From Wickerhamiella versatilis (taxonomy: Eukaryota): 64,000 nt of DNA. Position 1 is the first letter of the stretch. Each line of letters begins with the position of its first letter. Positions 42,459 to 60,433 of the stretch are shown here, in pieces. Where the stretch lies: the NCBI GenBank assembly GCA_030867685.1, contig JAQOWU010000003.1, positions 186,001-250,000 on the forward strand, read 5' to 3'. A program made the translations under genes and the position numbers. The notes under the pieces are model-generated. The model had not been told where the DNA came from. It saw nothing but the letters and a program-made list of their open reading frames with translations, and made no database searches.

Positions 42459-42829
42459 CTGTCCCCGAAGCAGATATGACCTGTATTTATGCTGTCTAAA
42501 GATATTTAGTGCAGACTGTGGGGAAGCTGAGCTGCATGGATTAGATTATTAACCGTAGGTTGCTAAGCGATCACCGATCCAGTTTGAAATACACGTACGA
42601 GGCATTTCAGTGAGCTGTCATTGATTGAACAAGCGAGAGTTTTGTAGCCATATTTTTTGCCAGCTTTGCACTATGGTGGATCTGCCCTTCGCGAAAAAAG
42701 GTCTGAACACGAACCCTTAACCTTTTGACCAGCTGAGAATACTGGCTATATATATACATATTCACACACAAATGCACACAACATAACCCAACCAAAACAA
42801 CAGAAATACTCCAGTCATCACGCAACAGA

Positions 42830-44293: not shown

Positions 44294-44557
44294 GTGAAGT
44301 CAGAATCTCAACATGTGTATATATAGCTAATGAATTAACGAAGCATACAGTCGCTAAATAGCATTATCTCCCACTCTCTAAGCAATCACTATTCTGTAGT
44401 CATAAGGAGGTTTTTCCCTGTCCTAATTAATGGCTATCTTGTTTAAGCTTCTCAGTATTTCTATAAAAGCAGTTATCTGGGTGCACAGTCAGGTTTCATA
44501 TAATCGCACCATAAACCGAGGAAATTTGCCGCTATCCTCGAGCCTACCCCGCAAAAT

Positions 44558-46708
44558 ATGGCAGGTGCGAATGGATATAGGATCATGAACTGCATGCAAT
44601 GCCGCAAAAGAAAGACCAGGTGTGATCGGAAGATACCTTGCGGGTCCTGCAGAGTGCTCGGGAAAGCATCCGAATGTGTGCCAATGACCCGATCTGTGGT
44701 AGCTGATACCAGTGATACTCATAACGAAAATTCTCCTGTTCAGTCTACGAATCCAAACACTGTTCCTGTCGAGCCTGAGACATCATCTGATGCCGGTCAC
44801 GCTCGTCTGAATCATATCGAGACTTTACTGCTTGGTGCACTGAATGAGGTCCAGATTCTTACACGTAGGCATAACCAGCAGGATGAATTGAATGAGATGG
44901 AATCACATGTGGACTCTAAACGACAGCGTACTGGTGATAGAAGTGGCGATGTTGATACCACTTTAGATAGGTCCAATCTGCTCTCAAAGGTAGAGCACAC
45001 CCTGATGGGGTTTACTTCCGAAGATTTTGAATCTCGGAAGAATCCCCCTAGTACGAATAATGGTGCTGAAATAGCATGCGTTGGTCCCGTGAATTCATCA
45101 GTCGACATGGTAATAGGCCTATTACAACTGATATCGGGTCAGCGGGCCTGTATCCTAGTAAATTACTACTTTGAATCAATCGATTGGTTTGCAAGAGTAC
45201 TAAGTCCAACCACTGGCCGAGACAACTGCCTCAGAATTGCCCGCCTGTCACCTCGTGAAATAGTTGAAAGCTTTTCCCTTCCCCAAGCATGTTGCTATCT
45301 TGCTATTCTGGGTCTCTCATTATACTTTGCATCTAACAGTCTTCTTTCAGAGATAAGCATCAGTTTCACAGATGCTCAATCCATATCAGAACGCCTTATA
45401 GCAGGCTGCGAGGAGATCCTCTGGAAACGGGATTTTGACAGCTCCCAGGACTTAGAGTTCCTGTCCTGTACGATTATAACGAGACTGTATCAGTATCGCC
45501 ATAAAAAGACCGGTGTTGCGGACTGGGCTTTATCAGGGGCAATGGTTAAAGTGGCGCAAAGTCTGGGATGTCACAGGATCGACGCATTGAAGCCGGGTGA
45601 AAGCCTGTGCCCACCATGGTCCAGCTGTATTCAGCGCGAGGTGGGTCGAAGAATATATTGGAGCTTGATTTGGGATGACTGGTCACATTCCACGGTCTCT
45701 GGTGTTTACGCCATCCACCCCAGCCAGACGTTCACGAGACCGCCTGAAAACATTTGCATCGCTGATGACGCCGAAGTCGTCCATAAAGACATCAGTGTAT
45801 ATACCACTTCCACTTATACCGTTTTCTGGATAAAATATGTTGAGGTGTGCCGCCAGATAACTGATTTGAGCTCTATGGTTGGTGGCAGCCTGGACGTGGA
45901 TCAGATCAAGCTGTTTGGTACTGCTTTGGACGAAATTCATAGCTCCATACCAGACTCGTTGAAATATAATGCCACAGAAGAGGACTTGGTTTGCCAGGAC
46001 GGTGGCAGAGCGCGGGTCATGGAAAGGTGCATGCTCGAAATTATGTACCAAAACCGGCTGCTTCGGCTACACCGAGACCATCAAATCCAGGGTTCGTACC
46101 AGCCAGCCTGGTACTTTGCCAAATCTGTGTCCATAAATGCGGCCATGAGAATCGTTCAAATCGTATCCAGATTTAGCGACGACTATCCTGAGCTATTAAA
46201 GTACTATTTGGTTAATTACTATGTCCTTGGCGCGGCAATAACATTGATAACGGAGCTCTGTTGCAAACGCTGGGAAACCACCAACGAGTTACAAGCCTTT
46301 CGAGACTATGTGGTGATAGCCAAACAGCTTTTGGGACGGACCCGGGACAGCTCGTATGTCGCCAGGGTATCTGAAAACGTACTTCATGAGTTGATTGCTG
46401 CCGAGGATTTGGTTCGTGGTGCCTTTATGGCAGAGGATGGCGAGGGTAAATTCCACGAGCTGTCACTAAATCCAGAAAATCGCCAGCTGGCATTACTATT
46501 CAGAGGTGTACTTAAGAACGTATACTTGGAACAAATAAAAGGCTTTGGTAAAGAAGGACAGTATACCCCTGGGAGTAGCAAATCTGGTGGTATCCTGAAT
46601 GCAAGCACCAGTAACCCACCACCCCTTAACCAGTATGGAGCCCAGGATCCATTTACTGCCGATATTATGGAGACTATAGATTCTATAATAGGCGCAGATT
46701 ATGGCTAG
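44558..46708 (+). CDS. Zn2Cys6 transcription factor with fungal TF domain
   Basis: CMQCRKRKTRCDRKIPCGSCRVLGKASEC; AQSLGCHR....REVGRRIYWSL...DW middle-homology region. Confidence 0.9.
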   Translation: MAGANGYRIMNCMQCRKRKTRCDRKIPCGSCRVLGKASECVPMTRSVVADTSDTHNENSPVQSTNPNTVPVEPETSSDAGHARLNHIETLLLGALNEVQILTRRHNQQDELNEMESHVDSKRQRTGDRSGDVDTTLDRSNLLSKVEHTLMGFTSEDFESRKNPPSTNNGAEIACVGPVNSSVDMVIGLLQLISGQRACILVNYYFESIDWFARVLSPTTGRDNCLRIARLSPREIVESFSLPQACCYLAILGLSLYFASNSLLSEISISFTDAQSISERLIAGCEEILWKRDFDSSQDLEFLSCTIITRLYQYRHKKTGVADWALSGAMVKVAQSLGCHRIDALKPGESLCPPWSSCIQREVGRRIYWSLIWDDWSHSTVSGVYAIHPSQTFTRPPENICIADDAEVVHKDISVYTTSTYTVFWIKYVEVCRQITDLSSMVGGSLDVDQIKLFGTALDEIHSSIPDSLKYNATEEDLVCQDGGRARVMERCMLEIMYQNRLLRLHRDHQIQGSYQPAWYFAKSVSINAAMRIVQIVSRFSDDYPELLKYYLVNYYVLGAAITLITELCCKRWETTNELQAFRDYVVIAKQLLGRTRDSSYVARVSENVLHELIAAEDLVRGAFMAEDGEGKFHELSLNPENRQLALLFRGVLKNVYLEQIKGFGKEGQYTPGSSKSGGILNASTSNPPPLNQYGAQDPFTADIMETIDSIIGADYG

Positions 46709-46752
46709 CACCATTTCTGGGTTATAATTTTGTGCATACTTATTTATTCGAA

Positions 46753-46818
46753 GCCCCGGCGAAATGCCGCGGGGGCCCCGGCCTGTCAAAAAAATTATAT
46801 AATAGGACTGTATATATA
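46753..46818 (+). promoter_or_regulatory. GC-rich element and TATA box upstream of the phenolic acid decarboxylase
   Basis: GCCCCGGC at 46753 and 46775, CGG-N7-CCG at 46757-46769, TATATATA at 46811. Confidence 0.5.
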
Positions 46819-46861
46819 CGGCACGCCCGTGCTCAGCTCAGCGAGCTTGTCGCCATTTAAA

Positions 46862-47398
46862 ATGTCAGAATTTAAAACAGATGAGAATTTTGATTCCACC
46901 AAGCCCGAGGAGCTGGGATTCTTCGTGGGGAAACATATGATTTACACCTACGATAATGGATGGCAATATGAAGTATACATCAAGAACCCTACGACAATTG
47001 ACTACCGTATTCATAGCGGAATCGTTGGTGGAAGGTGGGTCCGTGACCAGACAGTGCATCTGGTAGCGCTTGCCAAAGATATATGCAAGCTGTCCTGGGA
47101 CGAGCCGACGGGTACAGCAGTCTCGTTAGCATTCAACTTTACCACCAATAAGACCCATGGCACGATATTCTTCCCTCAGTGGATAAAGCAGGATCCTAAA
47201 AAGACTGTGTGCTACCAAAACGACCACATTCCTCTCATGCTCAAATACCGTGCTGAGGGACCCACCTACCCGAAGTTTGTGATTGACGAGTTCTCAACCC
47301 TCACTTTCATTGAAGACTGTGGCGAGAACAACGAGGAGGTCATCAACCGTGGTCCCGAGTCACTTGACAAAGAGTATACAACCAGACGCAACGTGTAA
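46862..47398 (+). CDS. padC: Cofactor-free phenolic acid (hydroxycinnamate) decarboxylase, PadC family
   Basis: GKHMIYTYDNGWQYE.YIKN..TIDYRIHSG.VGGRWV, SWDEPTGT.VSL, HG.IFFP.W, KTVCYQNDHI..M..YR..GPTYP; ATG at 46862. Confidence 0.94.
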   Translation: MSEFKTDENFDSTKPEELGFFVGKHMIYTYDNGWQYEVYIKNPTTIDYRIHSGIVGGRWVRDQTVHLVALAKDICKLSWDEPTGTAVSLAFNFTTNKTHGTIFFPQWIKQDPKKTVCYQNDHIPLMLKYRAEGPTYPKFVIDEFSTLTFIEDCGENNEEVINRGPESLDKEYTTRRNV

Positions 47399-47519
47399 TG
47401 TGCATCATTAACAAGCATCATACGTATGTATATATAGGAGGACCAGCCCTAAATACAAAATTAATGCTCACTCTAATATGCCACCATGCTATCCATATTT
47501 ACATATACACGGGCAAATT

Positions 47520-48671
47520 TTAGATGTCCAGTCCCAAAACTCGCGATGCGTTACCACCAAGAATATCGCTTTTCTTTTTCTCGTCAGCATCCAAGCACTT
47601 GCCGATGACCGACTTGTTGCTTTCCACACTTAGCCATTTGCCTGACTTATCACCAAGGGGAGGAAAGAAGGGATGGTCAGTGCCAAACATAACTCTGTCG
47701 GTGCTACCTGCGGCTTCAATGGCTGCCTTCAGCCCAGGAGTGCCGTAAATGACGGCATCCAGGTAAATATTCTCATGTAGCACCTCCCATATACTGCGCT
47801 GGGGGCCTTGCTTTTCACCGCCATTGGCAATAAATTCGCGCTCGTGGGCGACACAGGATTCTATTCGACCAGCTAGGAACGGCAACGTACCACCCGAATG
47901 GGCGAGCAGGAATTGGATTTGGGGATGACGGTCAAAGACACCTGAGAGATACATTCGTGAAACAGCGATTGTTGTTTCCAGAGGGAAGCCCAGTGCCAGC
48001 GGGAGGACATGGCCGAACCGCGCAACCACCTCAGAACCTCCATAAGCGATATCAGGAAGGCCATAATGAGGATGCAAAAATACCATGGTATTGGTCGCAG
48101 CCAGTGCCTCATATACTGGATCGAGGGCCGGGTCATCAAGACCGCCACCCAGTCCCGTGGTACCCATAATAATGCCTTTGATATGGTCTAAGGATTGCAG
48201 ACGATATATCTCAGCAGCAATGTCAGATGCCGGGGCTGAGAGAGGTAAACAGCCGAACGCATACAGCTTGAGAGGCCCATCCTTCTGAATATCAGGATTA
48301 TTATTATTTTCACGGCACTCTGAGTCAAGGTCATTGTTGATTTTTTGGGCTGACTTTAGCGCCTCAGCAGGATCCAGGAAGTCCAGCCAGGGGTTTGCCA
48401 GCGATACCACTGAGCAATGGATACCATGAAGCGCCATGAAGCGTCGTTTTTCCTCGAACGAAGAGTAGCTCTTATCTATGGGCCTTCCCCGCACGGACAG
48501 AGGCCGCGACGGATCGTCATCAGATGCTAAAATGATCAGTCTGGGGTCTTCTGAAGGATCAGGGGAATTGTAAACGTATGGCACTGTGGAGCGAGACGAC
48601 AGAAGGTCCATATATGAGGGGGGATAGATGTGCGTGTGGATATCCACCACGGTCATAGGGGGAGATGACAT
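47520..48671 (-). CDS. Uracil-5-carboxylate (isoorotate) decarboxylase, amidohydrolase_2 family
   Basis: VVDIHTHIYPPSY, SVVSLANPWLDF, GT.GLG.GLDDP, FLHPHYGLP, GHVLPLALGFP.ETTIAV.RMY, AHSGGTLPFLAGRIESC, MFGTDHPFFPP match fungal IDCases. Confidence 0.88.
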   Translation of the reverse strand: MSSPPMTVVDIHTHIYPPSYMDLLSSRSTVPYVYNSPDPSEDPRLIILASDDDPSRPLSVRGRPIDKSYSSFEEKRRFMALHGIHCSVVSLANPWLDFLDPAEALKSAQKINNDLDSECRENNNNPDIQKDGPLKLYAFGCLPLSAPASDIAAEIYRLQSLDHIKGIIMGTTGLGGGLDDPALDPVYEALAATNTMVFLHPHYGLPDIAYGGSEVVARFGHVLPLALGFPLETTIAVSRMYLSGVFDRHPQIQFLLAHSGGTLPFLAGRIESCVAHEREFIANGGEKQGPQRSIWEVLHENIYLDAVIYGTPGLKAAIEAAGSTDRVMFGTDHPFFPPLGDKSGKWLSVESNKSVIGKCLDADEKKKSDILGGNASRVLGLDI

Positions 48672-48810
48672 TCTGTTGGTGTTGCAGAGGGGCCAGCGGT
48701 TACTCTAGAAACCAGCGGTATGTACAAATTGCAGACTAGGTAGCGATGTATAAGTTCGGTACCACCAGCTTGCTGATAACGTTTCTCAGACCTTGGTTTA
48801 TAATCATCAA

Positions 48811-48868
48811 TCCGCGGAGCGGGGCACATTATCTGTCGTTTGAATCGGGGTTAAGCGGCGGGGTTAAG
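48811..48868. promoter_or_regulatory. Divergent-promoter elements: TCCGCGGA palindrome and CGGGGTTAAG direct repeat
   Basis: tccgcgga 48811-48818; cggggttaag 48846-48855 and 48859-48868. Confidence 0.6.
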
Positions 48869-49046
48869 TTTAGTATGAGACAACTCTCAGAGAAACATTG
48901 TACGGTGGATATTAATGCATAGTAGGTGAAATAGATATAATAGCAACAAAAAATCGTTATCAATCAAAAGGTCATGAGAACTCAAAAGGATAGGATGACT
49001 ATTCGACTATTTATAATCATATCAGCACCCCCAGTCTCTCATCCTC

Positions 49047-50036
49047 ATGATAGATATTTCGCAAGCACCGCTTTCTATTGTCGACCTAAGCGCATTTAAA
49101 TCTCCTGATGCAAGTGTACGGGCGGCTGAGGCGACCAAAATGAGAGATGCGTGCATCAAGTCTGGCTTTTTCTACATAAAAAATCATGACTTCGATCCAG
49201 AGGTTATCACCGCTGTTCGCAAGCAGTCCAAGGAGTTTTTCGACTTGCCTCTCAAAGATAAGGACGAGATCGACATCCGTTACTCTAACTGTTATCGAGG
49301 CTACGAGCCGTTGCGCGGTCAACGGCTTGAGGCAGGTGCTCCACCAGATGTCAAGGAGGGCTTTTATATGGGTCGGCATAAGGAATTGGACGATCCAGAG
49401 ATTAAGGGAAGATTCAATCAGGGACCAAACCAGTGGCCCTCGAAACTCCCTAACTTCAAGCCTACGTTGGAAACCTATTATAAGCACTGCACTGCAATCA
49501 TGGAAACCCTCATGAATGGACTTGCTCTTTCATTGGGACTCTCAGAGAAGTATTTCGTTGAAAATGGTTTTCTGAAGGATCCAATAGGTACATTGCGTCT
49601 ACTGCATTACCCACCACATCCTGTGGACGCCCAGCCAGATGAGAAGGGCTGTGGCGCCCACACAGACTTCGGGGCGGTGACCATATTGTTTCAGGATGAT
49701 TCCGGTGGGCTTCAGGTTCTCTCTGCAGATGGCAAGCAATGGATAGATGCTCCACCTATAGAAGGTACGTTTGTCGTCAACATGGGCGATCTAATAAGTC
49801 GCTGGACGAACGAAAAATACCATTCAAACGTTCACCGAGTCATAAACAAGTCCGGGCGTGACCGCTATTCTATCCCCTTTTTTTTCGAGGGCGGTTTGGA
49901 TTGCCTTGTTGAATGCCTGCCGACGTGCCTCGATGAGGGTGAGACGCCAAAGTATCCTCCCATCACAGTGGAAGATAACCTTAGAAACTGCTTCAACCGC
50001 ACCTATGGAGGTGTGAGGGAGGAAGTTGCAGCATGA
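49047..50036 (+). CDS. 2-oxoglutarate/Fe(II) dioxygenase, IPNS / thymine-7-hydroxylase superfamily
   Basis: GFFYIKNH, RGYEP, PDVKE, GPNQWP, LRLLHYPP, HTD..H facial triad (GAHTDFG, SNVHRV), RYSIPFF. Confidence 0.88.
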   Translation: MIDISQAPLSIVDLSAFKSPDASVRAAEATKMRDACIKSGFFYIKNHDFDPEVITAVRKQSKEFFDLPLKDKDEIDIRYSNCYRGYEPLRGQRLEAGAPPDVKEGFYMGRHKELDDPEIKGRFNQGPNQWPSKLPNFKPTLETYYKHCTAIMETLMNGLALSLGLSEKYFVENGFLKDPIGTLRLLHYPPHPVDAQPDEKGCGAHTDFGAVTILFQDDSGGLQVLSADGKQWIDAPPIEGTFVVNMGDLISRWTNEKYHSNVHRVINKSGRDRYSIPFFFEGGLDCLVECLPTCLDEGETPKYPPITVEDNLRNCFNRTYGGVREEVAA

Positions 50037-50160
50037 TAATAAGGCTTTGCTACTTCTAATATACGTTTCGTTTCAGAATAGCTTGTCTTTTTATTAAAGA
50101 GAGTAGAGGTTAAATAATTTTATCGAGTCATTACGCAATATAAAAAGTTCTCGCCTGGAA

Positions 50161-52029
50161 TCATGGTGTCTCAGTCGAGCTGTTAATCGACCGTGTAGAT
50201 TCATGGCTTCTCTGGCTGAGCTTGCCGGAATCAAGACCGTTATCGCGAACCTCTTCGTCAAAGAACTCAACGTCCACATTCTTCTCAAGCCAAATTTTGC
50301 TAAACGGTCGACCTTGAACCTCTACAGGTATCCCTTCAGGGGGGGATATCCAGCAGAACAGCATATATAACAAGGATGACAAAATGAAACCGACAAAGTA
50401 ATTAAGACGGTACAGGTATTTTGCACCAACGGGTACAGAAAGGCTCTGTCCCACAAATCCCGGCATATTGGGTACCAACGCTAACAAATATGCCGCGAAT
50501 CCTCGCCAGTTACATCCGAAAGAGGTCTTGTACATGTAGGGGGAGCTCTTGGAACCATTATAAAGATTTTTGAGATCAAGTTTCCCATGGCGAAGCCATG
50601 TATAATCCGTCAGAACCACGCCAGAAATACACGACAAAAAAACAGCATAGGCAGATAGATAAGTAGTGAACTGTGAAGAAGCTGAAAAGAAATGCCAAGG
50701 ACAAATACATAGAGCCAATGCGGCGCAAAGGAATGCACCTCGCCGAATGTTCATAAATTTTGGCAGGAAGGATGTCATATCAGTGCCAGCACTTAGCGAA
50801 TTCGCACATACGTTGGTGCCGAGTTGGCAGATAAGAAGTCCTAAAGCAATGAGAAACCCTCCACCTCGGCAGCCAGCGGTACCTGTGTTCACCCACTTAT
50901 CAAGTACCTTAAGGGGATCCCATGCCCATGTTATATCCTTTCCATACGTGGACTGTGCAGTTGAAGCTATGATGATACCCACAAGGGACGTAACCCCGAA
51001 TCCAAATGGGATGGTAATAAGTTGCGACCAGGTTGAATCAGAGGGTTTTGTGGAAAGACGAGAAAAATCTGGTGCATTCAGAACGAGCGTTGCATAGTTT
51101 GCCATTGCATTCATTACCGCATCGACGAAGGCCCAGCCTTCGTACCAACCTTCATCATGCGGATCACTCTTGTCAAACTTTATGTCGTTCTTGGGATGGT
51201 TAATCAGGTCTCCACCACCATGGTTCCGCACAAGCGCCCATATGAGAAAGCCAAATATCGTAAAAGGGGCAACGATTGCCTTCAATGTGAAAAGGTGACG
51301 AATCTGGTGAGGAGGGAACCACATGGCTGGCAAGTGGATAACCCACGCAATGAAGAAAGAAACAAACTCAAAAACAGACGTTCCACTTAAGTTTTTCTTA
51401 TCCCCCATTCGTTTTCCCACACGAGGATCGAAAATGCCTTTTAGCATTATCTGAACGCACTCACCTCCTATCCAGGTTTGAGAGCTAAACCAAATGATTG
51501 CCATGACCACGCGATTTATAACCGGCCACAACGATCCATAAACCCCAAATGATGCACGGCAAGACACCGGAAAACTAATATGATAGTATGCACCCACTCG
51601 GGACGCCCAGGTGATCAGGCACGCAGAAATGCCGTAACCAATCCAAATTCCAAGCCATGCTTCCCACCAAGTGAGCCCAGACTGTATACTACTACCTGCA
51701 ATCTGAAACGTGTTGACATTGATGGCATCAGCGAGCCACATCATCACGAAGTTGTACCATCCCCATGTGCGGCGAGCCTTTTCGACCGGCTTCAGGTCGA
51801 AATTATATAGGAAAAGCTGACTGAGTTTCAGACCTTCAGTATCACTTGTCTCCAGCCATCGAAGCCACTGGCGGCCACTTTTCCAGTTGTGCGGAATGTG
51901 GCCCTGCGGCTGGAGGCCTTTCATATCAAGATCAGAATGGCCATATGATTCTACCTGCCCTTCATCCAGGGAATTCCGGGACGACCTGGAGTATTGATCG
52001 CCGCCTTTTTTGTCCAGGTGCTCATTCAT
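50161..52029 (-). CDS. NCS1 nucleobase permease (Fur4/Dal4 type)
   Basis: LYNFDLKPVE..RRTWGWYNF..W.AD..NVNT.QI, YHISFPV..RASFG, NAPDFSR, N..ANSLSAGTDMT..LP...NIRRG, PW.F. Confidence 0.92.
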   Translation of the reverse strand: MNEHLDKKGGDQYSRSSRNSLDEGQVESYGHSDLDMKGLQPQGHIPHNWKSGRQWLRWLETSDTEGLKLSQLFLYNFDLKPVEKARRTWGWYNFVMMWLADAINVNTFQIAGSSIQSGLTWWEAWLGIWIGYGISACLITWASRVGAYYHISFPVSCRASFGVYGSLWPVINRVVMAIIWFSSQTWIGGECVQIMLKGIFDPRVGKRMGDKKNLSGTSVFEFVSFFIAWVIHLPAMWFPPHQIRHLFTLKAIVAPFTIFGFLIWALVRNHGGGDLINHPKNDIKFDKSDPHDEGWYEGWAFVDAVMNAMANYATLVLNAPDFSRLSTKPSDSTWSQLITIPFGFGVTSLVGIIIASTAQSTYGKDITWAWDPLKVLDKWVNTGTAGCRGGGFLIALGLLICQLGTNVCANSLSAGTDMTSFLPKFMNIRRGAFLCAALALCICPWHFFSASSQFTTYLSAYAVFLSCISGVVLTDYTWLRHGKLDLKNLYNGSKSSPYMYKTSFGCNWRGFAAYLLALVPNMPGFVGQSLSVPVGAKYLYRLNYFVGFILSSLLYMLFCWISPPEGIPVEVQGRPFSKIWLEKNVDVEFFDEEVRDNGLDSGKLSQRSHESTRSINSSTETP

Positions 52030-52452
52030 CTCAAAATACCACAGATAGTAAGAGAGTGATGAAGATTACCAGTGAATTCAGTACTTTCTGACATATCTCC
52101 CTCCCACTGCAGGCTTAGTTGCATAAAGCTGACAAATTTAAAGCGTTTGGTCTGCGCAGTATCTTGTCGTAAAGATTTCCTGATATATAGGTAACAGTAC
52201 TCGGAAAAAGCTTTGTTACCTTTGACTTTGCGACATCTATATCCCCTTTAGTTCAAACCACCATACCATCGCGGAAATTGCTTATCAAGGTCGACTAGTT
52301 GATTTGTAAATATCTGACAAATAGTAATGCTATTGCCGCGGAGATTACTTGCTCTCGTGATAAGTGAAGATCATATAGTATGCTAAAACCTAAAGTGGGC
52401 TATCTTGCATTGTCCAGCCAGTCTCAGGTAATGAAGTGATGATTGCTAGAAT

Positions 52453-53349
52453 TTATAGCTTAGATTCTAATTTTTTTTTCAGGCCAGCTCTCTGATACGA
52501 CATTTCTGCCAAGGAAGACCAATCCTTGTCTTCGTACCCAGTGGCCTTGGCCTGGATGAGACTATCACGCACGACTCCAGCCAGTGGCAGTGGCACTCGT
52601 GCATTATCACCAGCCTCTAAAGCTAGCCTAACGTCCTTAAGCCCTAGAGGAAGCTTGAAGCCGACAGGTTCGTACTCGCGCCTTCGGATGAACTGTGAAT
52701 AGCCCCTATAAACTCCGCACGGAAACAAGGCCTCCAAATAGAGGTCAATCATGTCATTGCGGTCGATGCCGTGTGCAGTAGCTAGGGCAGTTGCTTCTGC
52801 CATAGCCTCGATAGCCGAGGCAATCATCATGTTTCCTGAGATCTTCACCACATTGGCTTGAAACGGCATATTTCCCACATGCCATACTTTCACACTTACC
52901 GCTGAAAGCAAAGGTCGCAGGTTTTCCACATGTTCGGGCTTTCCACCCGCAACCAGATGTAATGCACCGGCTGCTGCGGCATCGGGACGCCCAAATACTG
53001 GACAGGCCACATATTCTACCCCGTGCGCGGCGTGCATTTTTTCGAGGTGTTTCGCATAGTTGACAGAGACGGTGGAGAAGTTTACGTGCAGCAAGGGCGT
53101 CCGGGCAGACTTAAGCCAGCCAGATTCAATGAGAGTACCCTGAATGGCATCGTCATGGGCCAGCATTGAAAACACTATGCCATACTTAGTCGCGTCTTCT
53201 GGTCTAGAGGCAATTTGTGCACCTACTTTCGCGAGTTCAGCCACTGGTTCGGAAAATCTGTCCCACACCACGACCTCGTGGCCAGCCTTTAGAAGGTTTC
53301 GGACGATTCCGTCACCCATTATTCCAATGCCAATAAACCCGACTTTCAT
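52453..53349 (-). CDS. beta-hydroxyacid dehydrogenase (YfjR / 3-hydroxyisobutyrate dehydrogenase family), bacterial-like, C-terminal SKL
   Basis: MKVGFIGIGIMG, HVNFSTVS, PVFGRPDAAAAG, ANVVKISGN (catalytic Lys), GFKLPLGLKDVRLA, DWS; ends KKKLESKL. Confidence 0.88.
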   Translation of the reverse strand: MKVGFIGIGIMGDGIVRNLLKAGHEVVVWDRFSEPVAELAKVGAQIASRPEDATKYGIVFSMLAHDDAIQGTLIESGWLKSARTPLLHVNFSTVSVNYAKHLEKMHAAHGVEYVACPVFGRPDAAAAGALHLVAGGKPEHVENLRPLLSAVSVKVWHVGNMPFQANVVKISGNMMIASAIEAMAEATALATAHGIDRNDMIDLYLEALFPCGVYRGYSQFIRRREYEPVGFKLPLGLKDVRLALEAGDNARVPLPLAGVVRDSLIQAKATGYEDKDWSSLAEMSYQRAGLKKKLESKL

Positions 53350-53452
53350 TTCAATCACCTAGCGAAACCAGAGCAGAGGATCACAAGTCACAAATTACAA
53401 ACTACGAATCACAATTGTTATCTATGTGCCTTAGTTAATTGATTATATAGTG

Positions 53453-54967
53453 CTAACCGTATCGAACCCCACCATTGAACCAGTCATCAAAGCCGGTGTT
53501 GGTGGAGACAATTACATTCCGCTTGATACTATATGCCTTGAGGGCATCCCAGCCATTTTCGACTCCGTAGCCACTATCCCCGTAGCCACTCCATATAGAG
53601 CGAGGATCATTTTTATGATGGTCATTAATCCATATCATTCCAGCCTTAATGCGAGTACCCATACGCGTAGCCCTTGCCACTTCTCTTGTCCATATTGAGG
53701 CACCCAGGGCATATGGCGAGTCGTTGGCTAACTGGAGAGCTTCTTCTTCGGTTTCAAACGGAGTGACGGAGACCACCGGCCCGAATACTTCGCTCCGGAA
53801 CAGGTCCATGTCCCGTGTGACATCGGCGAAAATTGTAGGCGTAACGTAATTGCCTTTGGACAGCTCTTCATCAGGCAGCTCAGGTTTATGCCCGCCTGCC
53901 ACGAGCCGAGCTCCTGCTGCTAGGGCATCCGAAATGAACTGCTCACACCGCTGCTGCGATGCACGAGAAATCACTGGACCGACATCAGTGGTCAGATCCG
54001 ATGGCCTTCCTAATCGCAGAGCCTCGGTTCTTGCCGCAAACACCTTAAGGAACTTTTCGTATATGCTACGCTGCACAATAAACCGACTGGCCGAGACACA
54101 TGTTTGGCCCGATGCCACAAAGGCAGCAAACACAGCCCCAGCAGCCGCCTCATATATATTGCTATCCTCAAAAATCACTACTGGTGTCTTCCCACCTAAC
54201 TCGAGCGTGCAGGGGACAATCCGATGGGCTGCTGCTGCTGCAACCCGTCGGCCAGTGGCGGTACCGCCGGTCAGATCGATACGTCGAACACTTTTATTCT
54301 GGCAGAGTGCTGCACCGGTCTCTGCCTCGCCAGTAACGACATTGATCACACCAGCAGGTAAGCCAGCCTCACTGGCCCAGGCCGCAATCAACAATGCTGT
54401 GCACGGAGCAAGCTCTGACGGTTTGATGACAACAGTATTGCCAGCAGCCAGTGCCGCGGCCATCTTTTTCGTGAGGATGAGAATTGGATGGTTCCAGGGC
54501 GTCAGCAATGCACAGACTCCGTAAGGCTGCCAGGTGGTTGTTGCTGAGAACCCACCGCGAAGCGAGTTCGACTCGCCCTCGAGGCCAGGAGCGATTCCAG
54601 CAAAATACTCTAACCACTCGGGTATGCGCGACATCTGTGCCCTCATTTCACGTATTGGTCTGCCAGTTATTGTGGACTCGTACCCAGCCAGCTCGCCGAT
54701 TCGCTGGGCAATAAGAGCAGCGAGTCGTCGCAAATGCCGACCTCGGTCGATCGGATCCATTTTCGACCATGTTTCGAATGCCTTTGATGCCGATGAAATT
54801 GCCTTATCGACGTCGGCTTCCCCTGCAATTGCCATGTGGCCGAGCAGCTTGCCCGTTGCAGCATATGGAAGGTCCCGCTTTGCACTACCTTCAACTTCGT
54901 GAAATTTTCCACCGTAAAAAATGTGTTTGCCATCATAAGTCTGCAAAAGTAGGTTTCCAAGAGACAT
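53453..54967 (-). CDS. NAD(P)-dependent aldehyde dehydrogenase, bacterial-like
   Basis: TPWNHP, KPSELAP, TGGTATG, LELGGK (Glu), SGQTCV (Cys), EVFGPV, SGYG.ENG; first ATG at 54967. Confidence 0.9.
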   Translation of the reverse strand: MSLGNLLLQTYDGKHIFYGGKFHEVEGSAKRDLPYAATGKLLGHMAIAGEADVDKAISSASKAFETWSKMDPIDRGRHLRRLAALIAQRIGELAGYESTITGRPIREMRAQMSRIPEWLEYFAGIAPGLEGESNSLRGGFSATTTWQPYGVCALLTPWNHPILILTKKMAAALAAGNTVVIKPSELAPCTALLIAAWASEAGLPAGVINVVTGEAETGAALCQNKSVRRIDLTGGTATGRRVAAAAAHRIVPCTLELGGKTPVVIFEDSNIYEAAAGAVFAAFVASGQTCVSASRFIVQRSIYEKFLKVFAARTEALRLGRPSDLTTDVGPVISRASQQRCEQFISDALAAGARLVAGGHKPELPDEELSKGNYVTPTIFADVTRDMDLFRSEVFGPVVSVTPFETEEEALQLANDSPYALGASIWTREVARATRMGTRIKAGMIWINDHHKNDPRSIWSGYGDSGYGVENGWDALKAYSIKRNVIVSTNTGFDDWFNGGVRYG

Positions 54968-55033
54968 ACTGGTAGAGTTCAGTCCGTCGCAGATAGCCAA
55001 TTACCTGTTATCGCCTAAGGTAAGGGTTAGTAG

Positions 55034-55043
55034 CTTAACCCCG
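55034..55043 (-). promoter_or_regulatory. CGGGGTTAAG element upstream of the ALDH gene, identical to the repeat in the IDCase/oxygenase promoter
   Basis: + strand cttaaccccg. Confidence 0.55.
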
Positions 55044-55822
55044 TCACCCTAATTTACGGCATATTGAGCAAGATTTGTCCGGTATATAGCGTCTAATCTT
55101 CGTTCCTGTAACCTATACATCAGCAAATCGTTACAGCTTGGAAAATGGGGGTCTGTACTAACCACTAGGCTGGTTGATTGTATGTATATCACATTGTCAG
55201 GTTAAAACATGAGTGGAAAGTCTAATGTATGCTAAAATGTAGGCAAATGGAACTTAATTGTGGTCTGGTTTGGGCTAGCTGGTGCAGAAAAAAGGAAGTG
55301 AATTTTATGGTACCAATTTAGGTCTTACAATGCACAGTTCTAGCATAATACACGTCGAGCGTTTTTTGCAAATAGTAGCTCTTCCACCTTTCTAACTGAC
55401 GCCTGATGCAATCGTAAACAGGCCAAATTATGATGAACCTCAACTGTCGTGTATTTCGCGAACAGGTAATAATAGGGTCAGGTACATGTAGATCGGTCAA
55501 GCTGGGGATGCAAACCCAACTCAAATCGGTAGTTTGTCTAGTCTCAATCAAAAACGTCGGTTATTTTTCTGAAATTTCAAAAATGGTGTTAAGATATATG
55601 CAATTCAGATTGATTTGAGCAGACTGCAATCGGAGGTTAATGCGTAAGATGATTACAAATACGCGTTTCATCGTTTCATCGAGCGAGGGAGAGAGATTTT
55701 ACTCGAATTTTGATTTCCAACTGTGAGTGTGGATTATAACAACTAATTTGTTTTGAAATTACTCGACTACGTCTGATATTGAGTCTGTCATAATGAGAAT
55801 TCTATTCACACAAGATATACTA

Positions 55823-55840
55823 CCCCGCATTAATTAATAA
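55823..55840. promoter_or_regulatory. Possible Mig1/CreA glucose-repression site upstream of GH51
   Basis: CCCCGC (reverse complement GCGGGG) flanked by AT-rich attaattaataa. Confidence 0.35.
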
Positions 55841-55891
55841 TCACATAAGGCTACATAACTTTGATGCATAATTTTTTTCTTAGAATATACA

Positions 55892-57838
55892 ATGTTGTTC
55901 TCAATATTTCTGGCTTCAGCAGCTGCCCTGGTAATCAGCGACAGCAGGACTAATGACTCTTCGTCTATCCTAAATGGTATCGTGTTCGAAGACATAAATC
56001 ACAGCGGCGATGGCGGTATATACGGAGAGTTGCTTGCTAACCGAGCATTCCAAGGTGACGGACCATCAACCCACAACTATACTGGCGTTAATGCTAAGCT
56101 TCAGCTCACAAACGAATCCTTATCAGATGCCTTGCCTTATTCGTTGCTTGTTAACGGTGACGGCTTCTACAACGAAGGCTACTGGGGAATCAAGGTTTCC
56201 CCCGAGGAGTATACTGCCAGGTTCTACTACAAGGGCAATGCAAGCCTAGGCGTGGAGCTAAGGAGTCTGAATGACAACACAACATTTGCTTCAGCGAAAC
56301 CAACAGCCGTGACTGAGGATGACGGAATATATATTGCCGAGTCAAATGGCTTTCGACTGTACAAAGCGAAATTAAAACCTTCAAAGAGCGCTTCGGATTT
56401 GAGTAATGCGTTGTTTATTTACGGATCAGGCCATTACAGTTTGATATCCCTATTTGGACCTACATATAACGACAGGCCCAATGGGTTACGAAAAGATCTC
56501 GCTGAAGCCGTGGCTGGTTTTGGCCCGCACTTCCTTCGATTTCCAGGTGCAAATAATCTTGAAGGTGAGGGTGGTCCGGAGACGAGATGGAAGTGGAATG
56601 AAACGATTGGGCCACTCATTAACCGTCCAGGACGCCAGGGTGACTGGGGCTATCCAACAACGGATGGACTTGGGCTGCACGAATACTTTGATTGGATAGA
56701 GGATATGAATTTAACGGCGATTCTCGGCGTATGGGCAGGCTTTACCCTCGAGCCCTCGGTGGTTCCCGAGGATGAGCTGCAGCCATACATCGATGATGTT
56801 CTTCACGAGCTTGAGTACATATTGGGTGACAGTTCAACAGAGTACGGGTCATTGAGAGTAAAAAATGGTCGAACATCGCCGTGGCAGCTAGAGTATGTTG
56901 AAATTGGTAACGAGGATTTCTTTGATTTGAATTATACTTATGGCTACCGTTTCCCGGCTTTCAACAAAGCAATAAAGGAAAAGTACCCCCACATCACAAC
57001 AATAGCGACTACACAATTCAACATATCGAGTTTTCCCAACGAAACGACCTGGTGGGACCAGCACTACTATCAGACACCGCAATGGTTTGTGGATCAGTTC
57101 GACGCATATGATAACTATCCCCGCAACGCAACCAAAATTTTCGTTGGTGAGTACGGTGCCGCCTTTAGAGATGGGCATAACGGCGATATGGGGCCTGGCG
57201 GACGTTACTTCAACCCCACTGTCTATGGCGCGGTGTCCGAGGCAGTCTACATGGCAGGCCTCGAGAGGAATTCCGATCAAGTCAAGGCGGCCTGCTATGC
57301 ACCAATAATCGAGAATGTCAACCACTATAACAATCTTAACCAGCTTCATCCCAAGCTTGTTGACTTTGATGCCGGAACAGTTAACGTCACGCCATCATAT
57401 CAGGTGCAGAAACTTTGGTCTACCACTCAGGGCGATCGCATACTTACATTAGAAAATGCAACATTCGGGCCTTTGTATTACGTTGCGAACGTTGCTGATG
57501 ATCAGCTGCACGTGAAGATTTCAAACCCCACAAATCAAACTGCTGAGTTTAGCGCAATCGTCGACGTGTCGGGATTTGACAGTGGCTCCGCATCGGCAGA
57601 GGGCATCTCTTCTAGCAATCCAGAAGCCATCAGGGTTGATATCAAGCCATGGAACGTCGACTATACCAGCAAAAAGCTTAGACTGACCATGAAGCCGTAT
57701 TCCGCGGGCGTTATAACTGTTGAAAAGAGAACAGGGGATACTCCCATCGCAAACGTAGGTTCAAGCTGTAAATTTCAAATTTCTATTACAATTTTGATGG
57801 TAGCAGCTATCGTGGATGGATTGCTCCTGATAATTTAG
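55892..57838 (+). CDS. Secreted GH51 alpha-L-arabinofuranosidase with C-terminal hydrophobic (GPI-like) tail
   Basis: FEDINHSGDGGIYGEL..NRAFQ, NEGYWGI, NGLRKDL, RFPGANNLEG, VEIGNED (acid/base), VGEY (nucleophile), GLERNSD. Confidence 0.92.
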   Translation: MLFSIFLASAAALVISDSRTNDSSSILNGIVFEDINHSGDGGIYGELLANRAFQGDGPSTHNYTGVNAKLQLTNESLSDALPYSLLVNGDGFYNEGYWGIKVSPEEYTARFYYKGNASLGVELRSLNDNTTFASAKPTAVTEDDGIYIAESNGFRLYKAKLKPSKSASDLSNALFIYGSGHYSLISLFGPTYNDRPNGLRKDLAEAVAGFGPHFLRFPGANNLEGEGGPETRWKWNETIGPLINRPGRQGDWGYPTTDGLGLHEYFDWIEDMNLTAILGVWAGFTLEPSVVPEDELQPYIDDVLHELEYILGDSSTEYGSLRVKNGRTSPWQLEYVEIGNEDFFDLNYTYGYRFPAFNKAIKEKYPHITTIATTQFNISSFPNETTWWDQHYYQTPQWFVDQFDAYDNYPRNATKIFVGEYGAAFRDGHNGDMGPGGRYFNPTVYGAVSEAVYMAGLERNSDQVKAACYAPIIENVNHYNNLNQLHPKLVDFDAGTVNVTPSYQVQKLWSTTQGDRILTLENATFGPLYYVANVADDQLHVKISNPTNQTAEFSAIVDVSGFDSGSASAEGISSSNPEAIRVDIKPWNVDYTSKKLRLTMKPYSAGVITVEKRTGDTPIANVGSSCKFQISITILMVAAIVDGLLLII

Positions 57839-58020
57839 CAATGTAACTTTAACTTTAAGTACTTCAGGGCAAGCGGGGGTACAGCAGGTGGGATACAGAG
57901 CCACACAACCAGGCTAACCACGACAAATTGACGTCAGGAGTTTCACCTAAATTGCATCGGTTGGAAGGGCATGCAGAAGAATGCATATAATTCCTCGATT
58001 CATGGTGAGTAATCAGAACA

Positions 58021-59484
58021 ATGAGACCCGGCAGATGGTTTGCACTTGTTTCCGCAACTCTGGCCCAAATCAATGAGCTCAAAAGCTCCCCTGGATTCCG
58101 TAAAATATGCTCCGGAACCTATTCATCGCGGGACTGGTCCGGGTCATACGATCCTGAGATCAGTATATCATTTTCGGCAGGTGACGTCCACAACAGGGAT
58201 AATGGTACATTAGGATCTCAGCTAGCTGTTGTTGTGTATTCCATCAAGGATGAGGCATGCCTAGGTATGCCCACTGCAGATAATCGGATCGAATTCACTT
58301 GCACACAGGCGGCAATTGCTCAGGGGTTGTGTTCATCAGAGGATCGTGGTAAATTCCTTATCAATCCAGATATTCAAGCAAGTAATTCGATATTATCCGA
58401 GAAAATTGATCTGCCAAGTAGCAAAAAAATAACCTATGAGATTGTTGATACCTCTTATTATTGTGTAGCCGCTGCGCGAGCCCAGGCCTGTCGCGATTGG
58501 CACAGCGACACAGGCTGTCATGACCTGGTGCCCATTGAGAACGACGATGATGATAATTATGCATTCAATTACAACATAAACGTGGTATTCCGCAATTCAT
58601 TCGGCTATCTAGAGGCATCCAAGGCATCGCTTGTGCGGTTCTACTTCTCATTAGCATGCATTTGTGCCGCGACACTTTTACTCTGGCTTATTTACACTTA
58701 CAAGAACCAGAATTATGTTATCATGATTCATCGTGAGATATCTGCATTCGGGGCCCTGCTTACGTGCCGACAGCTCGTCCTGGGATTCTACTATTTAACC
58801 TTGCTGCGGGAGAAGAGTTCGACCTTCGTACTATGGCTTGTATCAACTAATGACACAATTTGCACCATTTATGGACTGTCTCTTTTCCTGTCAATATTCG
58901 CTGGTTACTCCATTCTGCATGATTGCTTGAATCCGCGCAGAAAGCTGTATCTGGCGTTAATTTGCATATTTACCTTTGTTCCGTTTCTTTTATACACTGC
59001 AGATACACTTTATAGCGCGGGAAATGGCGGTAGTACCAGCTTGTTCGGCGTTGGCACTTTTTTTCCGGTTATGGTGGTGATGGTTATCGACTACATCATG
59101 CTCATGAACGATGCATCCGCAGTCAAAACATCACTTGAGGAGAAAAATCACGTTTCCAAGGCCCATTTGTATGCGAGGCTGCAAAGAGTGCTGAGAACCA
59201 GCGCCGTCTTTGCATGTACCTACTGCATTTTCATCCTGCTGCTAAATTTTTCCAGTTCTTTTTCGAGCTTCCATGAGAATTTCTGGATGTATACGTGGAT
59301 ACTTACGGTAGGCTGGCCTGAGGTCCTGTGTATAATAACAGTTTTTAGTCTGGCATCTATAATTCGGCCTTCTCCCTATCTTGAAGATTTCCAAAAACTG
59401 GCTGCGGAGGATGTGACTCCTGAATTTGCACTTGGAACTTTTCACGGCGATAATGAGTCCGAGGATGAGTTTGAATTGAATTGA
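58021..59484 (+). CDS. Ptm1 / GPR107-like (lung seven-TM, GOST) membrane protein, divergent
   Basis: Signal peptide, CSG.YS..DW.G..DP.I, G.F.I, YYCV, FRNSFGYL.AS, then about 7 TM segments and an acidic tail. Confidence 0.75.
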   Translation: MRPGRWFALVSATLAQINELKSSPGFRKICSGTYSSRDWSGSYDPEISISFSAGDVHNRDNGTLGSQLAVVVYSIKDEACLGMPTADNRIEFTCTQAAIAQGLCSSEDRGKFLINPDIQASNSILSEKIDLPSSKKITYEIVDTSYYCVAAARAQACRDWHSDTGCHDLVPIENDDDDNYAFNYNINVVFRNSFGYLEASKASLVRFYFSLACICAATLLLWLIYTYKNQNYVIMIHREISAFGALLTCRQLVLGFYYLTLLREKSSTFVLWLVSTNDTICTIYGLSLFLSIFAGYSILHDCLNPRRKLYLALICIFTFVPFLLYTADTLYSAGNGGSTSLFGVGTFFPVMVVMVIDYIMLMNDASAVKTSLEEKNHVSKAHLYARLQRVLRTSAVFACTYCIFILLLNFSSSFSSFHENFWMYTWILTVGWPEVLCIITVFSLASIIRPSPYLEDFQKLAAEDVTPEFALGTFHGDNESEDEFELN

Positions 59485-59575
59485 ATTGAATAAATAAGGG
59501 TTCGCTTTGTCATTTCATGCTTTTCCTACCTAATCTATTTAACATTCTTTATTCATGATCATAAAACCCACTAAA

Positions 59576-60433
59576 CTAAATACCAACCATTTCGAAGCCG
59601 GTGGCATCAGTGCATTCGCCATTGACTTTAATGATGAAACCATCATCAGGGCAGGCATAGAAACCATCTGTAGTGCCATCAGCGGGACTCAATTCAATCG
59701 TGAGCTCGCCATGGACAGCTGATGCATTAACTGGGTTGAACCCGAACTTGGTGTTGTAGTATTCCGAGTGACCATGGGACGTAACTATCAGCTTTCCAGA
59801 CTTGTCGACGCCCAGGAAGCTTGCATCACCTACTTGCGCAGCACCGCCATTAAATACAATTTCCAGCGGCTCACCATTATCTCCCTCCTGTTTAATCTTG
59901 ACCTCGCCATTGTCATTAACGATTTCATGTAGATGAATTCCTGGCGAGCCTGAACGCACGGCCATGTAACTCAACTTAGGAGATGATACAACTTCACGTT
60001 TCTCCTCTTCCTGCTGGATCTCGTAACTGCCAAGTTCCACACCAATAACCGTTGAACATTCTGCCGGTGCTTGGTTCACATAAATCTTACCGGTATCATA
60101 ACAGACGACATAAGGCTCAGTACCCATATACTCAAGATTATACAAGGCGCCATCTCCTGCACCCGACATTGTCCAAGGACCAGATCCCCGGGCCTCACCC
60201 AAGGTCAGGGAATTGTCGGGGCCCACCGTGACGACACTACTGGAATTTTTCACAAACAACGCACCCTTCGGGTTCAGCTCGAACTCAGAGCTACCATCAC
60301 CGTGGATGGCAAGCTCGTTATCAACAACACTGACGGATGCCATGTGGACTCGGATGTCACCAGACCGGATGGTCATGAGGCCGAAGTCAGTGGCTGCCAC
60401 AGACGCAGCTAGCAATGGGATTGTGTACAACAT
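59576..60433 (-). CDS. Secreted Cwp1-like cell-wall protein with two tandem domains
   Basis: Signal peptide; FGLMTIRSG...H and YMAVRSGS..IH repeats; FYACP...C motif. Confidence 0.7.
   Translation of the reverse strand: MLYTIPLLAASVAATDFGLMTIRSGDIRVHMASVSVVDNELAIHGDGSSEFELNPKGALFVKNSSSVVTVGPDNSLTLGEARGSGPWTMSGAGDGALYNLEYMGTEPYVVCYDTGKIYVNQAPAECSTVIGVELGSYEIQQEEEKREVVSSPKLSYMAVRSGSPGIHLHEIVNDNGEVKIKQEGDNGEPLEIVFNGGAAQVGDASFLGVDKSGKLIVTSHGHSEYYNTKFGFNPVNASAVHGELTIELSPADGTTDGFYACPDDGFIIKVNGECTDATGFEMVGI

Follow-up and report, generated by a model that had tools for sequence, protein, structure and literature searches.

In fungal thymidine salvage, as outlined in a study of thymine-7-hydroxylase (T7H; PMC4787775), T7H carries out three oxidations and isoorotate decarboxylase (IDCase) then performs the decarboxylation. 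Herein we describe a locus of the ascomycete yeast Wickerhamiella versatilis, located in a 64,000-nucleotide stretch of contig JAQOWU010000003.1 (assembly GCA_030867685.1, positions 186,001 to 250,000 of the forward strand; the whole stretch is hereafter called the window), in which genes for an IDCase, a 2-oxoglutarate (2OG)/Fe(II) oxygenase of the IPNS family, a FUR-type nucleobase permease, a beta-hydroxyacid dehydrogenase (HAD) and an aldehyde dehydrogenase (ALDH) stand side by side. On the basis of sequence comparison and gene context, we put at about even the prospect that this is a conserved mosaic cluster for pyrimidine base use, in which a bacterial oxygenase would have taken the place of T7H and to which an ALDH-HAD pair would be linked. 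The locus resembles the T7H and IDCase pathway of Neurospora and Rhodotorula in its orthologue-grade IDCase, in the adjacent 2OG/Fe(II) oxygenase of the same superfamily and in the predicted net conversion of a 5-methyl group-bearing pyrimidine to uracil, but it differs in that the yeast oxygenase is a proteobacterial xenologue and in that a permease and two dehydrogenases of bacterial origin belong to the same cluster.

Several other described systems share single features with this locus. Budding yeasts of the Wickerhamiella/Starmerella clade have reportedly acquired bacterial operons for siderophores and for thiamine salvage, and the present locus is like those in its retained operon order, host-like composition and conservation across species; here, however, only a two-gene remnant with a 103-bp spacer is found, amid native fungal genes and together with a third bacterial gene of another source. 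The bacterial mmsAB operon, which encodes methylmalonate-semialdehyde dehydrogenase (MMSDH) and 3-hydroxyisobutyrate dehydrogenase (HIBADH), combines the same two enzyme superfamilies in the same order for the sequence alcohol to aldehyde to acid, whereas the yeast proteins fall below the MMSDH and HIBADH cutoffs, the yeast ALDH carries the hydrolytic Glu/Cys pair and the yeast HAD has a variant substrate motif. In the TOL upper pathway, a monooxygenase is followed by an alcohol dehydrogenase and an aldehyde dehydrogenase. If the dehydrogenases of the yeast cluster were to complete what the oxygenase begins, the likeness would be that an oxygenase makes an alcohol, the oxidation of which is completed by two NAD(P)-dependent dehydrogenases, although the substrate class, the enzyme families and the host are all different. 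Finally, the hxn nicotinate cluster of Aspergillus nidulans is a fungal N-heterocycle cluster that likewise includes an IPNS/T7H-like 2OG oxygenase, HxnY, whose role is unsettled; the cluster concerns another heterocycle, consists of native fungal genes and contains no IDCase (PMC9304392).

The first open reading frame of the cluster matched the solved uracil-5-carboxylate decarboxylases end to end (residues 5-382; PDB entries 4hjw at 4.5e-112 and 4hk5 at 6.3e-109), the next-best family in the PDB, ACMSD, reaching only 4.6e-21, and the motifs DIHTH (10), HPHYG (200), AHSGG (257) and GTDHPFF (330) were all identical to those of 4hjw in the alignment. In IDCase, the HxH pair, a later His and the Asp of DHPFF have metal-binding and substrate roles. 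The protein is by these comparisons a specific IDCase, beyond a generic amidohydrolase, with decarboxylation of 5-carboxyuracil as its predicted reaction. Its nearest protein-atlas clusters were from Ascomycota, one of them being named uracil-5-carboxylate decarboxylase. The permease scored 437.6 bits against TIGR00800 ncs1, over the cutoff of 353.1, and its nearest protein-atlas clusters were ascomycete proteins named 'uracil permease'; it is classified as a FUR-type NCS1 nucleobase/nucleoside permease of the fungal type, its substrate being predicted only at the class level. Both genes are assigned, from their sequence affiliations, as vertically inherited fungal genes.

The oxygenase gave quite a different picture. 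In a search of 5.8 billion proteins, in which 120 matches were listed, the top two (P0001 and P0002) were 98% and 77% identical to it, the third, at 60%, grouped with a Pseudomonas/Stutzerimonas clade in the tree described below, and the bacterial matches P0004-P0120 gave 385-422 bits at 51-58% identity. All of the 120 listed matches that bore an organism name were from Proteobacteria (51-57%; among them Stutzerimonas, Cupriavidus, Pseudomonas, Comamonas and Komagataeibacter). Neurospora T7H (5c3p), in contrast, scored 147 bits (4.6e-42) and ranked eighth among PDB sequences, with 9ovh ahead of it at 229.6 bits. A tree of 80 rows, comprising the window protein, the first 70 of the 120 listed matches (P0071-P0120 being left out) and nine proteins translated from loci, placed the window protein, P0001 and P0002 in one clade (SH-aLRT 100) with a long stem of 0.71 changes per site. 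This yeast clade sat inside a 75-row bacterial group, within which its exact sister was not resolved. The protein is thus no orthologue of T7H, bacterial proteins being closer to it and the yeast clade being nested among bacteria, and the statement of the initial annotation that it lies nearer to bacterial IPNS-type proteins than to Neurospora T7H is supported by the scores. The iron- and 2OG-site residues were present (H205-T-D207, H263 and R273-Y-S275, with RLLHYP at 184), their roles being those given in the T7H study (PMC4787775); such motifs occur throughout the superfamily and do not single out T7H. Taken together, the oxygenase is a xenologue from the proteobacterial IPNS family and a candidate thymine or nucleobase hydroxylase.

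Bacterial affinities were also found for the two dehydrogenases, as the initial annotation had proposed. Proteins of Rhizobium plasmids, Trinickia and metagenomes shared 71-76% identity with the HAD, and those of Rhizobium plasmids, Trinickia and Vibrio shared 71-72% with the ALDH; the relatives of both came from the same taxa and apparently, to judge from contigs of equal length, from the same contigs. In FastTree phylogenies the yeast pair of HAD sequences fell within a 13-row bacterial clade (SH-like support 100) and the yeast pair of ALDH sequences within a 17-row bacterial clade (support 100), the surrounding clades including Rhizobium plasmid, Trinickia and Vibrio sequences. The ALDH and HAD genes follow each other in this order on one strand with a 103-bp spacer, and the Rhizobium plasmid has them in the same order with a 49-bp spacer. 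Because of this shared gene order, the sequence evidence is taken to mean that ALDH and HAD arrived together as a bacterial operon. As a separate observation, 103 bp between the ALDH stop codon and the HAD start codon is very short for an independent yeast promoter, and a shared transcript is possible. A contig scan with the HAD protein as query matched N-terminal Rossmann peptides only, and the loci that it returned (L001-L057) were set aside as irrelevant.

In the ALDH, E256 (ELGGK) and C290 (GQTCVS) were invariant in a 16-row alignment, and the enzyme is predicted to be of the hydrolytic type, which releases the free acid. It remained under the NCBIfam equivalog cutoffs for betaine-aldehyde dehydrogenase (BADH, 450.6 vs 668.6) and MMSDH (246.2 vs 448.5), fell into no other characterised equivalog such as SSADH either, and its best solved relatives were hydroxymuconic-semialdehyde and betaine-aldehyde dehydrogenases. 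The HAD showed the two-domain architecture and was likewise below all NCBIfam equivalog cutoffs (HIBADH, GarR, threonate reductase or sulfolactaldehyde reductase; best 160.8 vs 397), scoring 138 bits against a cutoff of 292 bits for the 3-hydroxyisobutyrate dehydrogenase equivalog. Its best PDB match was 4gbj, a protein of unassigned function, with which it has a PVFGRP-type motif in common; classical beta-hydroxyacid dehydrogenases carry another motif at this position.

With two fungal-type genes and three of bacterial origin, the cluster is a mosaic, as had been supposed from the sequence at the outset. The three bacterial genes probably came from Proteobacteria in at least two transfers. 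Two transfers are likelier than one because the Rhizobium plasmid has no oxygenase or IDCase homologue and because the oxygenase and the operon have their nearest relatives in different taxa. The GC content at third codon positions (GC3) of the three genes was 0.50-0.51, and that of all five genes was 0.49-0.51, within the range of 0.35-0.56 for the window, whereas the fetched bacterial loci were mostly 60-70% GC; since the composition is host-like in comparison with the donor loci, the transfers are not recent.

The cluster is intact. An open reading frame listing (standard code) gave five uninterrupted frames at 47520-54967, as summarized in Table 1, in agreement with the five adjacent genes of the initial annotation, whose gene identities were all correct as judged from Pfam, NCBIfam and PDB matches; the peptides quoted there correspond to oxygenase residues 84-109 and 200-209. 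Its end coordinate of 55060 overshoots by about 90 bp into the upstream spacer of ALDH, the last frame ending at 54967. Fungal-type genes lie on both flanks of the cluster. When contigs of four public runs were aligned to 42000-60000, one contig in each of two related lineages (83,447 and 114,273 bases) spanned the interval collinearly, a third lineage covered it with five separate contigs, and the fourth run, a metagenome, contributed short pieces only. The three lineages were about 92-96% identical to this interval at the nucleotide level; one run diverged by about 8% in 45422-52393 and by about 3.6% in the part that holds HAD and ALDH. Because single contigs of two other runs span the interval collinearly, a chimera is excluded, and the stretch is neither an assembly chimera nor a contaminant and is integrated in a yeast chromosome. 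The five genes are collinear in near relatives that have diverged by about 4-8%: the arrangement is fixed in these, which says little on deeper conservation. In addition, for the relatives of oxygenase, HAD and ALDH at 77-83% identity, the longest contig of each was 70,837 bp, and these relatives most likely share one contig of a second species. One run had been taken as possible RNA; its contigs span opposite-strand genes and have adapter-like ends, and it was not counted as transcription.

Table 1. Features of the mosaic cluster, with positions numbered from the first letter of the window.
Feature	Position	Strand	Size	Domain matches
IDCase	47520-48671	-	383 aa	Pfam Amidohydro_2 at 7.6e-24
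Spacer IDCase/oxygenase, putative divergent promoter	48672-49046		375 bp	
2OG/Fe(II) oxygenase, IPNS family	49047-50036	+	329 aa	Pfam DIOX_N + 2OG-FeII_Oxy
FUR-type NCS1 permease	50161-52029	-	622 aa	Pfam Transp_cyt_pur at 1.1e-135
Beta-hydroxyacid dehydrogenase (HAD)	52453-53349	-	298 aa	NAD_binding_2 at 1e-31 + NAD_binding_11 at 6.3e-18
Spacer ALDH/HAD, putative operon remnant	53350-53452		103 bp	
Aldehyde dehydrogenase (ALDH)	53453-54967	-	504 aa	Pfam Aldedh at 3.2e-155

The route that we propose would begin with import of thymine or a related 5-substituted pyrimidine base or nucleoside by the permease. The bacterial-type oxygenase, functionally replacing fungal T7H, would then oxidise the C5 side chain, and IDCase would strip the 5-carboxyl group to give uracil. 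The ALDH-HAD pair would provide an alcohol to aldehyde to acid oxidation tied to this route; its substrates would be the intermediates that bear a 5-hydroxymethyl or 5-formyl group or else hydroxy acids and semialdehydes formed when the ring is later broken down. Every substrate named here is a prediction, whereas the identity of the genes, the bacterial origin of three of them, the order of the operon, the host-like codon composition and the conservation in relatives were read directly from the comparisons. Among open-access papers and bioRxiv, none was found that describes an IDCase cluster with bacterial genes in a yeast or that assigns a function to the bacterial IPNS-type oxygenase family.

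Gene contexts of the bacterial relatives provided further indications. All six bacterial oxygenase contexts examined were nucleobase settings, five of them being distinct since two represent the same island on two plasmids. On the Pseudomonas putida plasmid pKF715A (L059) the oxygenase gene is accompanied by genes for LysR, a BMP nucleoside-binding protein and hpxO, with Rieske and GST genes nearby; on the Acinetobacter plasmid NZ_CP026416 (L087, 3480-16456) it forms a run with genes for LysR, a second 2OG oxygenase, OmpK and an NCS2 nucleobase permease, with hpxO and allantoicase near; and a Moraxella plasmid has the same five-gene run as Acinetobacter, without hpxO or allantoicase in the stretch examined. 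In three bacterial genomes the oxygenase adjoins deaminase-type genes (CMP/dCMP-type, Amidohydro_1 and adenosine deaminase). Few of the sampled bacterial genomes yielded the oxygenase, with 3 in 401 at E<=1e-80 and 2 in 301 at E<=1e-95. As regards the plasmid islands themselves (L087, L088 and L059), these hold two or three IPNS-type 2OG oxygenases together with LysR, OmpK, an NCS2 permease, Rieske subunits, hpxO, allantoicase and formaldehyde-detoxification genes, a content that suggests the catabolism of purines or methylated purines.

The closest relative of the operon, on a 540-kb plasmid of Rhizobium sp. CB3171, is arranged as GntR-ALDH-HAD and is divergent from deoA (thymidine phosphorylase); within 30 kb there are genes for a nucleoside phosphorylase, deoC, phosphopentomutase, a BMP ABC transporter and YjjG pyrimidine nucleotidase. 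An operon for an aminotransferase, an SDR, an alpha/beta hydrolase and a carbamoylase-type amidase lies 10 kb from ALDH-HAD on this plasmid. ALDH orthologues at 60-67% identity were found in 10 of 401 sampled genomes of one order, and no HAD gene occurred within 10 kb of them in any of the nine genome loci fetched. We scanned 99 bacterial loci by tblastn (nine genome loci, six further loci, some of which are oxygenase contexts only, 80 metagenome loci and four others). No NCS1 gene was detected in these 99 loci. For a census of ALDH neighbourhoods, 90 bacterial loci were reduced to 48 groups at 90% ALDH identity, and neighbours were counted by group: SDR in 30, ABC ATPase in 29, ABC permease in 27, NMT1/THI5-like binding protein and GntR regulator in 25 each, DAO oxidase in 16, Pyr_redox_2/BFD oxidase in 14, arylmalonate-decarboxylase-like protein in 12, Zn alcohol dehydrogenase in 11, aminotransferase in 10, alpha/beta hydrolase in 8 and M20 amidase in 7. 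Among the 80 metagenome loci, an IPNS-type oxygenase (32-36% identity) was situated within about 3 kb of ALDH in six and a HAD-like gene beside ALDH in two. On contig L168, ALDH, HAD and an IPNS-type oxygenase follow one another consecutively, and on the related contig L166, TenA and a THI5-like binding protein stand beside ALDH-HAD; the identities of the L166/L168 proteins to the yeast proteins are low (43%, 25-26% and 32%). On contig L156, genes for an SDR, an aminotransferase and an alpha/beta hydrolase adjoin ALDH, in addition to those for an acyl-CoA dehydrogenase, an enoyl-CoA hydratase and a CoA transferase.

Two recurrent arrangements seen in these loci deserve mention in their own right. 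The ALDH subfamily with the conserved motif NDHHKND (L071-L079, L089-L168) has a recurrent, apparently undescribed neighbourhood that consists of an SDR, a GntR/FCD regulator, an NMT1/THI5-type ABC transporter and a DAO plus Pyr_redox_2/BFD two-subunit oxidase, to which some lineages add a nucleoside hydrolase and a luciferase-like monooxygenase. A four-gene module for a class I/II aminotransferase, an SDR, an alpha/beta hydrolase and an M20 carbamoylase-type amidase was found both on the Rhizobium plasmid (L060, 17000-21073) and on the 32%-GC marine contig L166 (8488-12539), and it is linked to ALDH-HAD in both.

A candidate regulatory motif was also found in the upstream spacers. The 64 kb contain three exact copies of the 10-mer CGGGGTTAAG: a tandem pair in the spacer between IDCase and the oxygenase (48846 and 48859), and a single copy at 55034-55043 on the minus strand, 67 bp upstream of the ALDH start codon. 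The 10-mer includes CGG triplets like Zn2Cys6 binding sites. About 0.17 shared 11-mers would be expected by chance between the IDCase/oxygenase and ALDH spacers; with one mismatch allowed, four copies of CGGGGTTAAG were counted against 2.3 expected, which is not significant, so that the three exact copies alone are noteworthy. The motif was found post hoc and makes a weak candidate for a shared regulatory site. The 8-mer CCGCGGAG, common to the upstream spacers of IDCase/oxygenase and of the permease, was dropped, as about five shared 8-mers are expected by chance for two spacers this long.

Several findings weigh against a cluster for pyrimidine base use centered on the oxidation of thymine. 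In Neurospora T7H, the N-terminal residues Asn87 and Glu122 contact the substrate, and their mutation is selectively detrimental to the second and third oxidations (PMC4787775). The N-terminal region of the yeast oxygenase, residues 51-140, gave on its own no T7H match at E<=0.01 in the PDB, its eight matches including SpoC, TropC, 9ovh, TraH, 6jyv and 3oox. As the oxygenase is no T7H orthologue and this region drew no T7H match, thymine is just one candidate substrate. An IDCase orthologue was present in none of the three oxygenase-bearing bacterial genomes, the closest plasmid-borne relatives of the oxygenase lie in purine-type rather than pyrimidine islands, and the commonest ALDH neighbours (SDR, GntR, NMT1-type ABC transporter and FAD oxidases) have no clear tie to pyrimidine metabolism. 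The window is moreover rich in accessory metabolism genes (transporters, dehydrogenases and glycosidases), so that thematic neighbours could be partly chance. Four alternatives were considered, which overlap in part and whose likelihoods are not meant to add up to a whole. According to one of these, which we regard as unlikely, the oxygenase would act on some other nucleobase or nucleoside, by xanthine or hypoxanthine hydroxylation, N-demethylation of methylated bases or 2'-hydroxylation of pyrimidine deoxynucleosides, and a separate canonical T7H elsewhere in the genome would feed IDCase. The N-terminal region and the company kept by the bacterial relatives would fit such a role, the plasmid-borne ones standing beside hpxO, allantoicase, an NCS2 permease, Rieske oxygenases and formaldehyde-detoxification genes and the genomic ones adjoining deaminases, as would the occurrence of T7H-like HxnY in a fungal pyridine catabolic cluster, where it has no defined role (PMC9304392). 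On the other hand, the oxygenase shares its 375-bp divergent promoter region with IDCase, and the long stem of the yeast clade (0.71 changes per site) would allow for a shift in substrate once the gene had been transferred. It is comparably improbable that the adjacency has no function, the genes having collected in a transfer-prone accessory region where ALDH-HAD, and perhaps the oxygenase too, would serve a non-pyrimidine role. The window is indeed dense in genes for MFS and amino-acid permeases, alcohol dehydrogenases, GH3, amine oxidase, amidase, phenolic acid decarboxylase and GH51 arabinofuranosidase, the core neighbours of the bacterial ALDH are not pyrimidine-specific, and collinearity was seen only in relatives that have diverged by about 4-8%. 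Nevertheless, the IDCase, the nucleobase-family oxygenase and the FUR permease fit together as a trio, the bacterial contexts on both source sides are islands for nucleosides or nucleobases, and the three bacterial genes apparently lie on one contig in a species that has diverged by 17-23% at the protein level.

The remaining two alternatives accept a pyrimidine cluster and concern the task of the dehydrogenases. In the relay put forward by the initial annotation, to which we give a low probability, the oxygenase would convert thymine to 5-hydroxymethyluracil (5hmU) only, HAD would oxidise 5hmU to 5-formyluracil (5fU), ALDH would oxidise 5fU to 5-carboxyuracil and IDCase would release uracil, so that two NAD(P)H would be gained instead of two more 2-oxoglutarate being spent. 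The corollary that a bacterial pathway of hydroxymethyl-pyrimidine oxidation would have been the source of the ALDH-HAD operon, giving a four-enzyme line for 5-methylpyrimidine demethylation, is likewise doubtful. In keeping with such a relay, there would be one gene for each consecutive chemical step plus a permease, all adjacent; the ALDH keeps Cys290 and Glu256 of the hydrolytic ALDHs, which would deliver the free acid that IDCase needs; the HAD belongs to an uncharacterised subfamily (PVFGRP; 4gbj); the donor operon adjoins a thymidine phosphorylase gene; and CGGGGTTAAG is common to the IDCase/oxygenase and ALDH promoters. The consecutive ALDH, HAD and oxygenase genes of L168, together with the TenA and THI5-like proteins of L166, which suggest a hydroxymethyl-pyrimidine context, and the six metagenome loci with an oxygenase close to ALDH point the same way, albeit, for L166 and L168, at the low identities given above. 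Against these stand the arrival of ALDH-HAD as a ready-made bacterial operon, the 540-kb Rhizobium plasmid without any IDCase or oxygenase homologue, and the different nearest bacterial taxa of oxygenase and operon, which leave no pre-assembled pathway. An IDCase-like gene was found in none of the 99 bacterial loci scanned by tblastn. Furthermore, T7H itself performs all three steps (PMC4787775), and nothing in the oxygenase sequence precludes the same; no paper on 5hmU or 5fU dehydrogenases was found among open-access papers and bioRxiv. The comparative evidence thus leans mildly against the relay. Alternatively, ALDH-HAD might handle C3 products of ring breakdown in an mmsAB-like manner (malonate or methylmalonate semialdehyde, 3-hydroxypropionate or 3-hydroxyisobutyrate) rather than the C5 side chain, a possibility that we rate just as low. 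The order of ALDH and HAD mirrors mmsA-mmsB, and the operon for aminotransferase, SDR, hydrolase and carbamoylase 10 kb from the pair on the Rhizobium plasmid, the same four genes adjoining HAD in L166, the ALDH neighbours in L156 and the census counts for SDR, aminotransferase, alpha/beta hydrolase, M20 amidase and arylmalonate-decarboxylase-like genes (30, 10, 8, 7 and 12 of the 48 groups) would all accord with it. Both yeast proteins are, however, below the respective cutoffs (246 vs 448 bits for MMSDH and 138 vs 292 bits for 3-hydroxyisobutyrate dehydrogenase), the best solved ALDH relatives are of the hydroxymuconic-semialdehyde and betaine-aldehyde types, HAD accompanies ALDH in a minority of bacterial loci (0 of 9 genome loci and 2 of 80 metagenome loci), and no ring-opening pyrimidine enzymes were recognised in the 64-kb window. 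An M20 peptidase at 61036-62694 was considered as a beta-alanine synthase and rejected, its PDB matches being of the aminoacylase and DapE types only.

If the mosaic cluster for pyrimidine use does work as a unit, it would represent a eukaryote that joins its own genes with bacterial genes from two sources, including an operon remnant, into a catabolic or salvage pathway, and its thymine-oxidising system would be unrelated by descent to fungal T7H. It would then be of interest for 5-hydroxymethyl-, 5-formyl- and 5-carboxy-pyrimidine chemistry and for biocatalysis. The locus also offers a functional lead for three large bacterial families, namely the IPNS-family oxygenases of nucleobase islands, the ALDH subfamily with the conserved neighbourhood and the 4gbj-type HAD subfamily.

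In the surroundings of the cluster, a few minor features were observed. An element of about 40 bp at 52394-52433, between the permease upstream region and the 3' end of HAD, is cleanly skipped (40 bp) in two related lineages; it occurs once in the window, has contig depths of 774 and 1419 with many loose ends, and no tRNA was found. The element is apparently a short repeat that these genomes carry in high copy number. Three genes lie at 42830-47398, immediately upstream of the cluster. One encodes a FAD_binding_2 flavoprotein of 487 aa with distant similarity to fumarate/urocanate reductases and to the vinyl-phenol reductase family, another a Zn2Cys6 regulator of 716 aa, and the third a phenolic acid decarboxylase of the bacterial type (PF05870; 5.3e-80 to structures of phenolic acid decarboxylases); from their sequences this trio looks like a unit for hydroxycinnamate decarboxylation and reduction. 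On the other side, a GH51-type alpha-L-arabinofuranosidase gene (ASD1_dom + Alpha-L-AF_C) at 55892-57838 is divergent from ALDH and may have a plant-cell-wall or accessory function.

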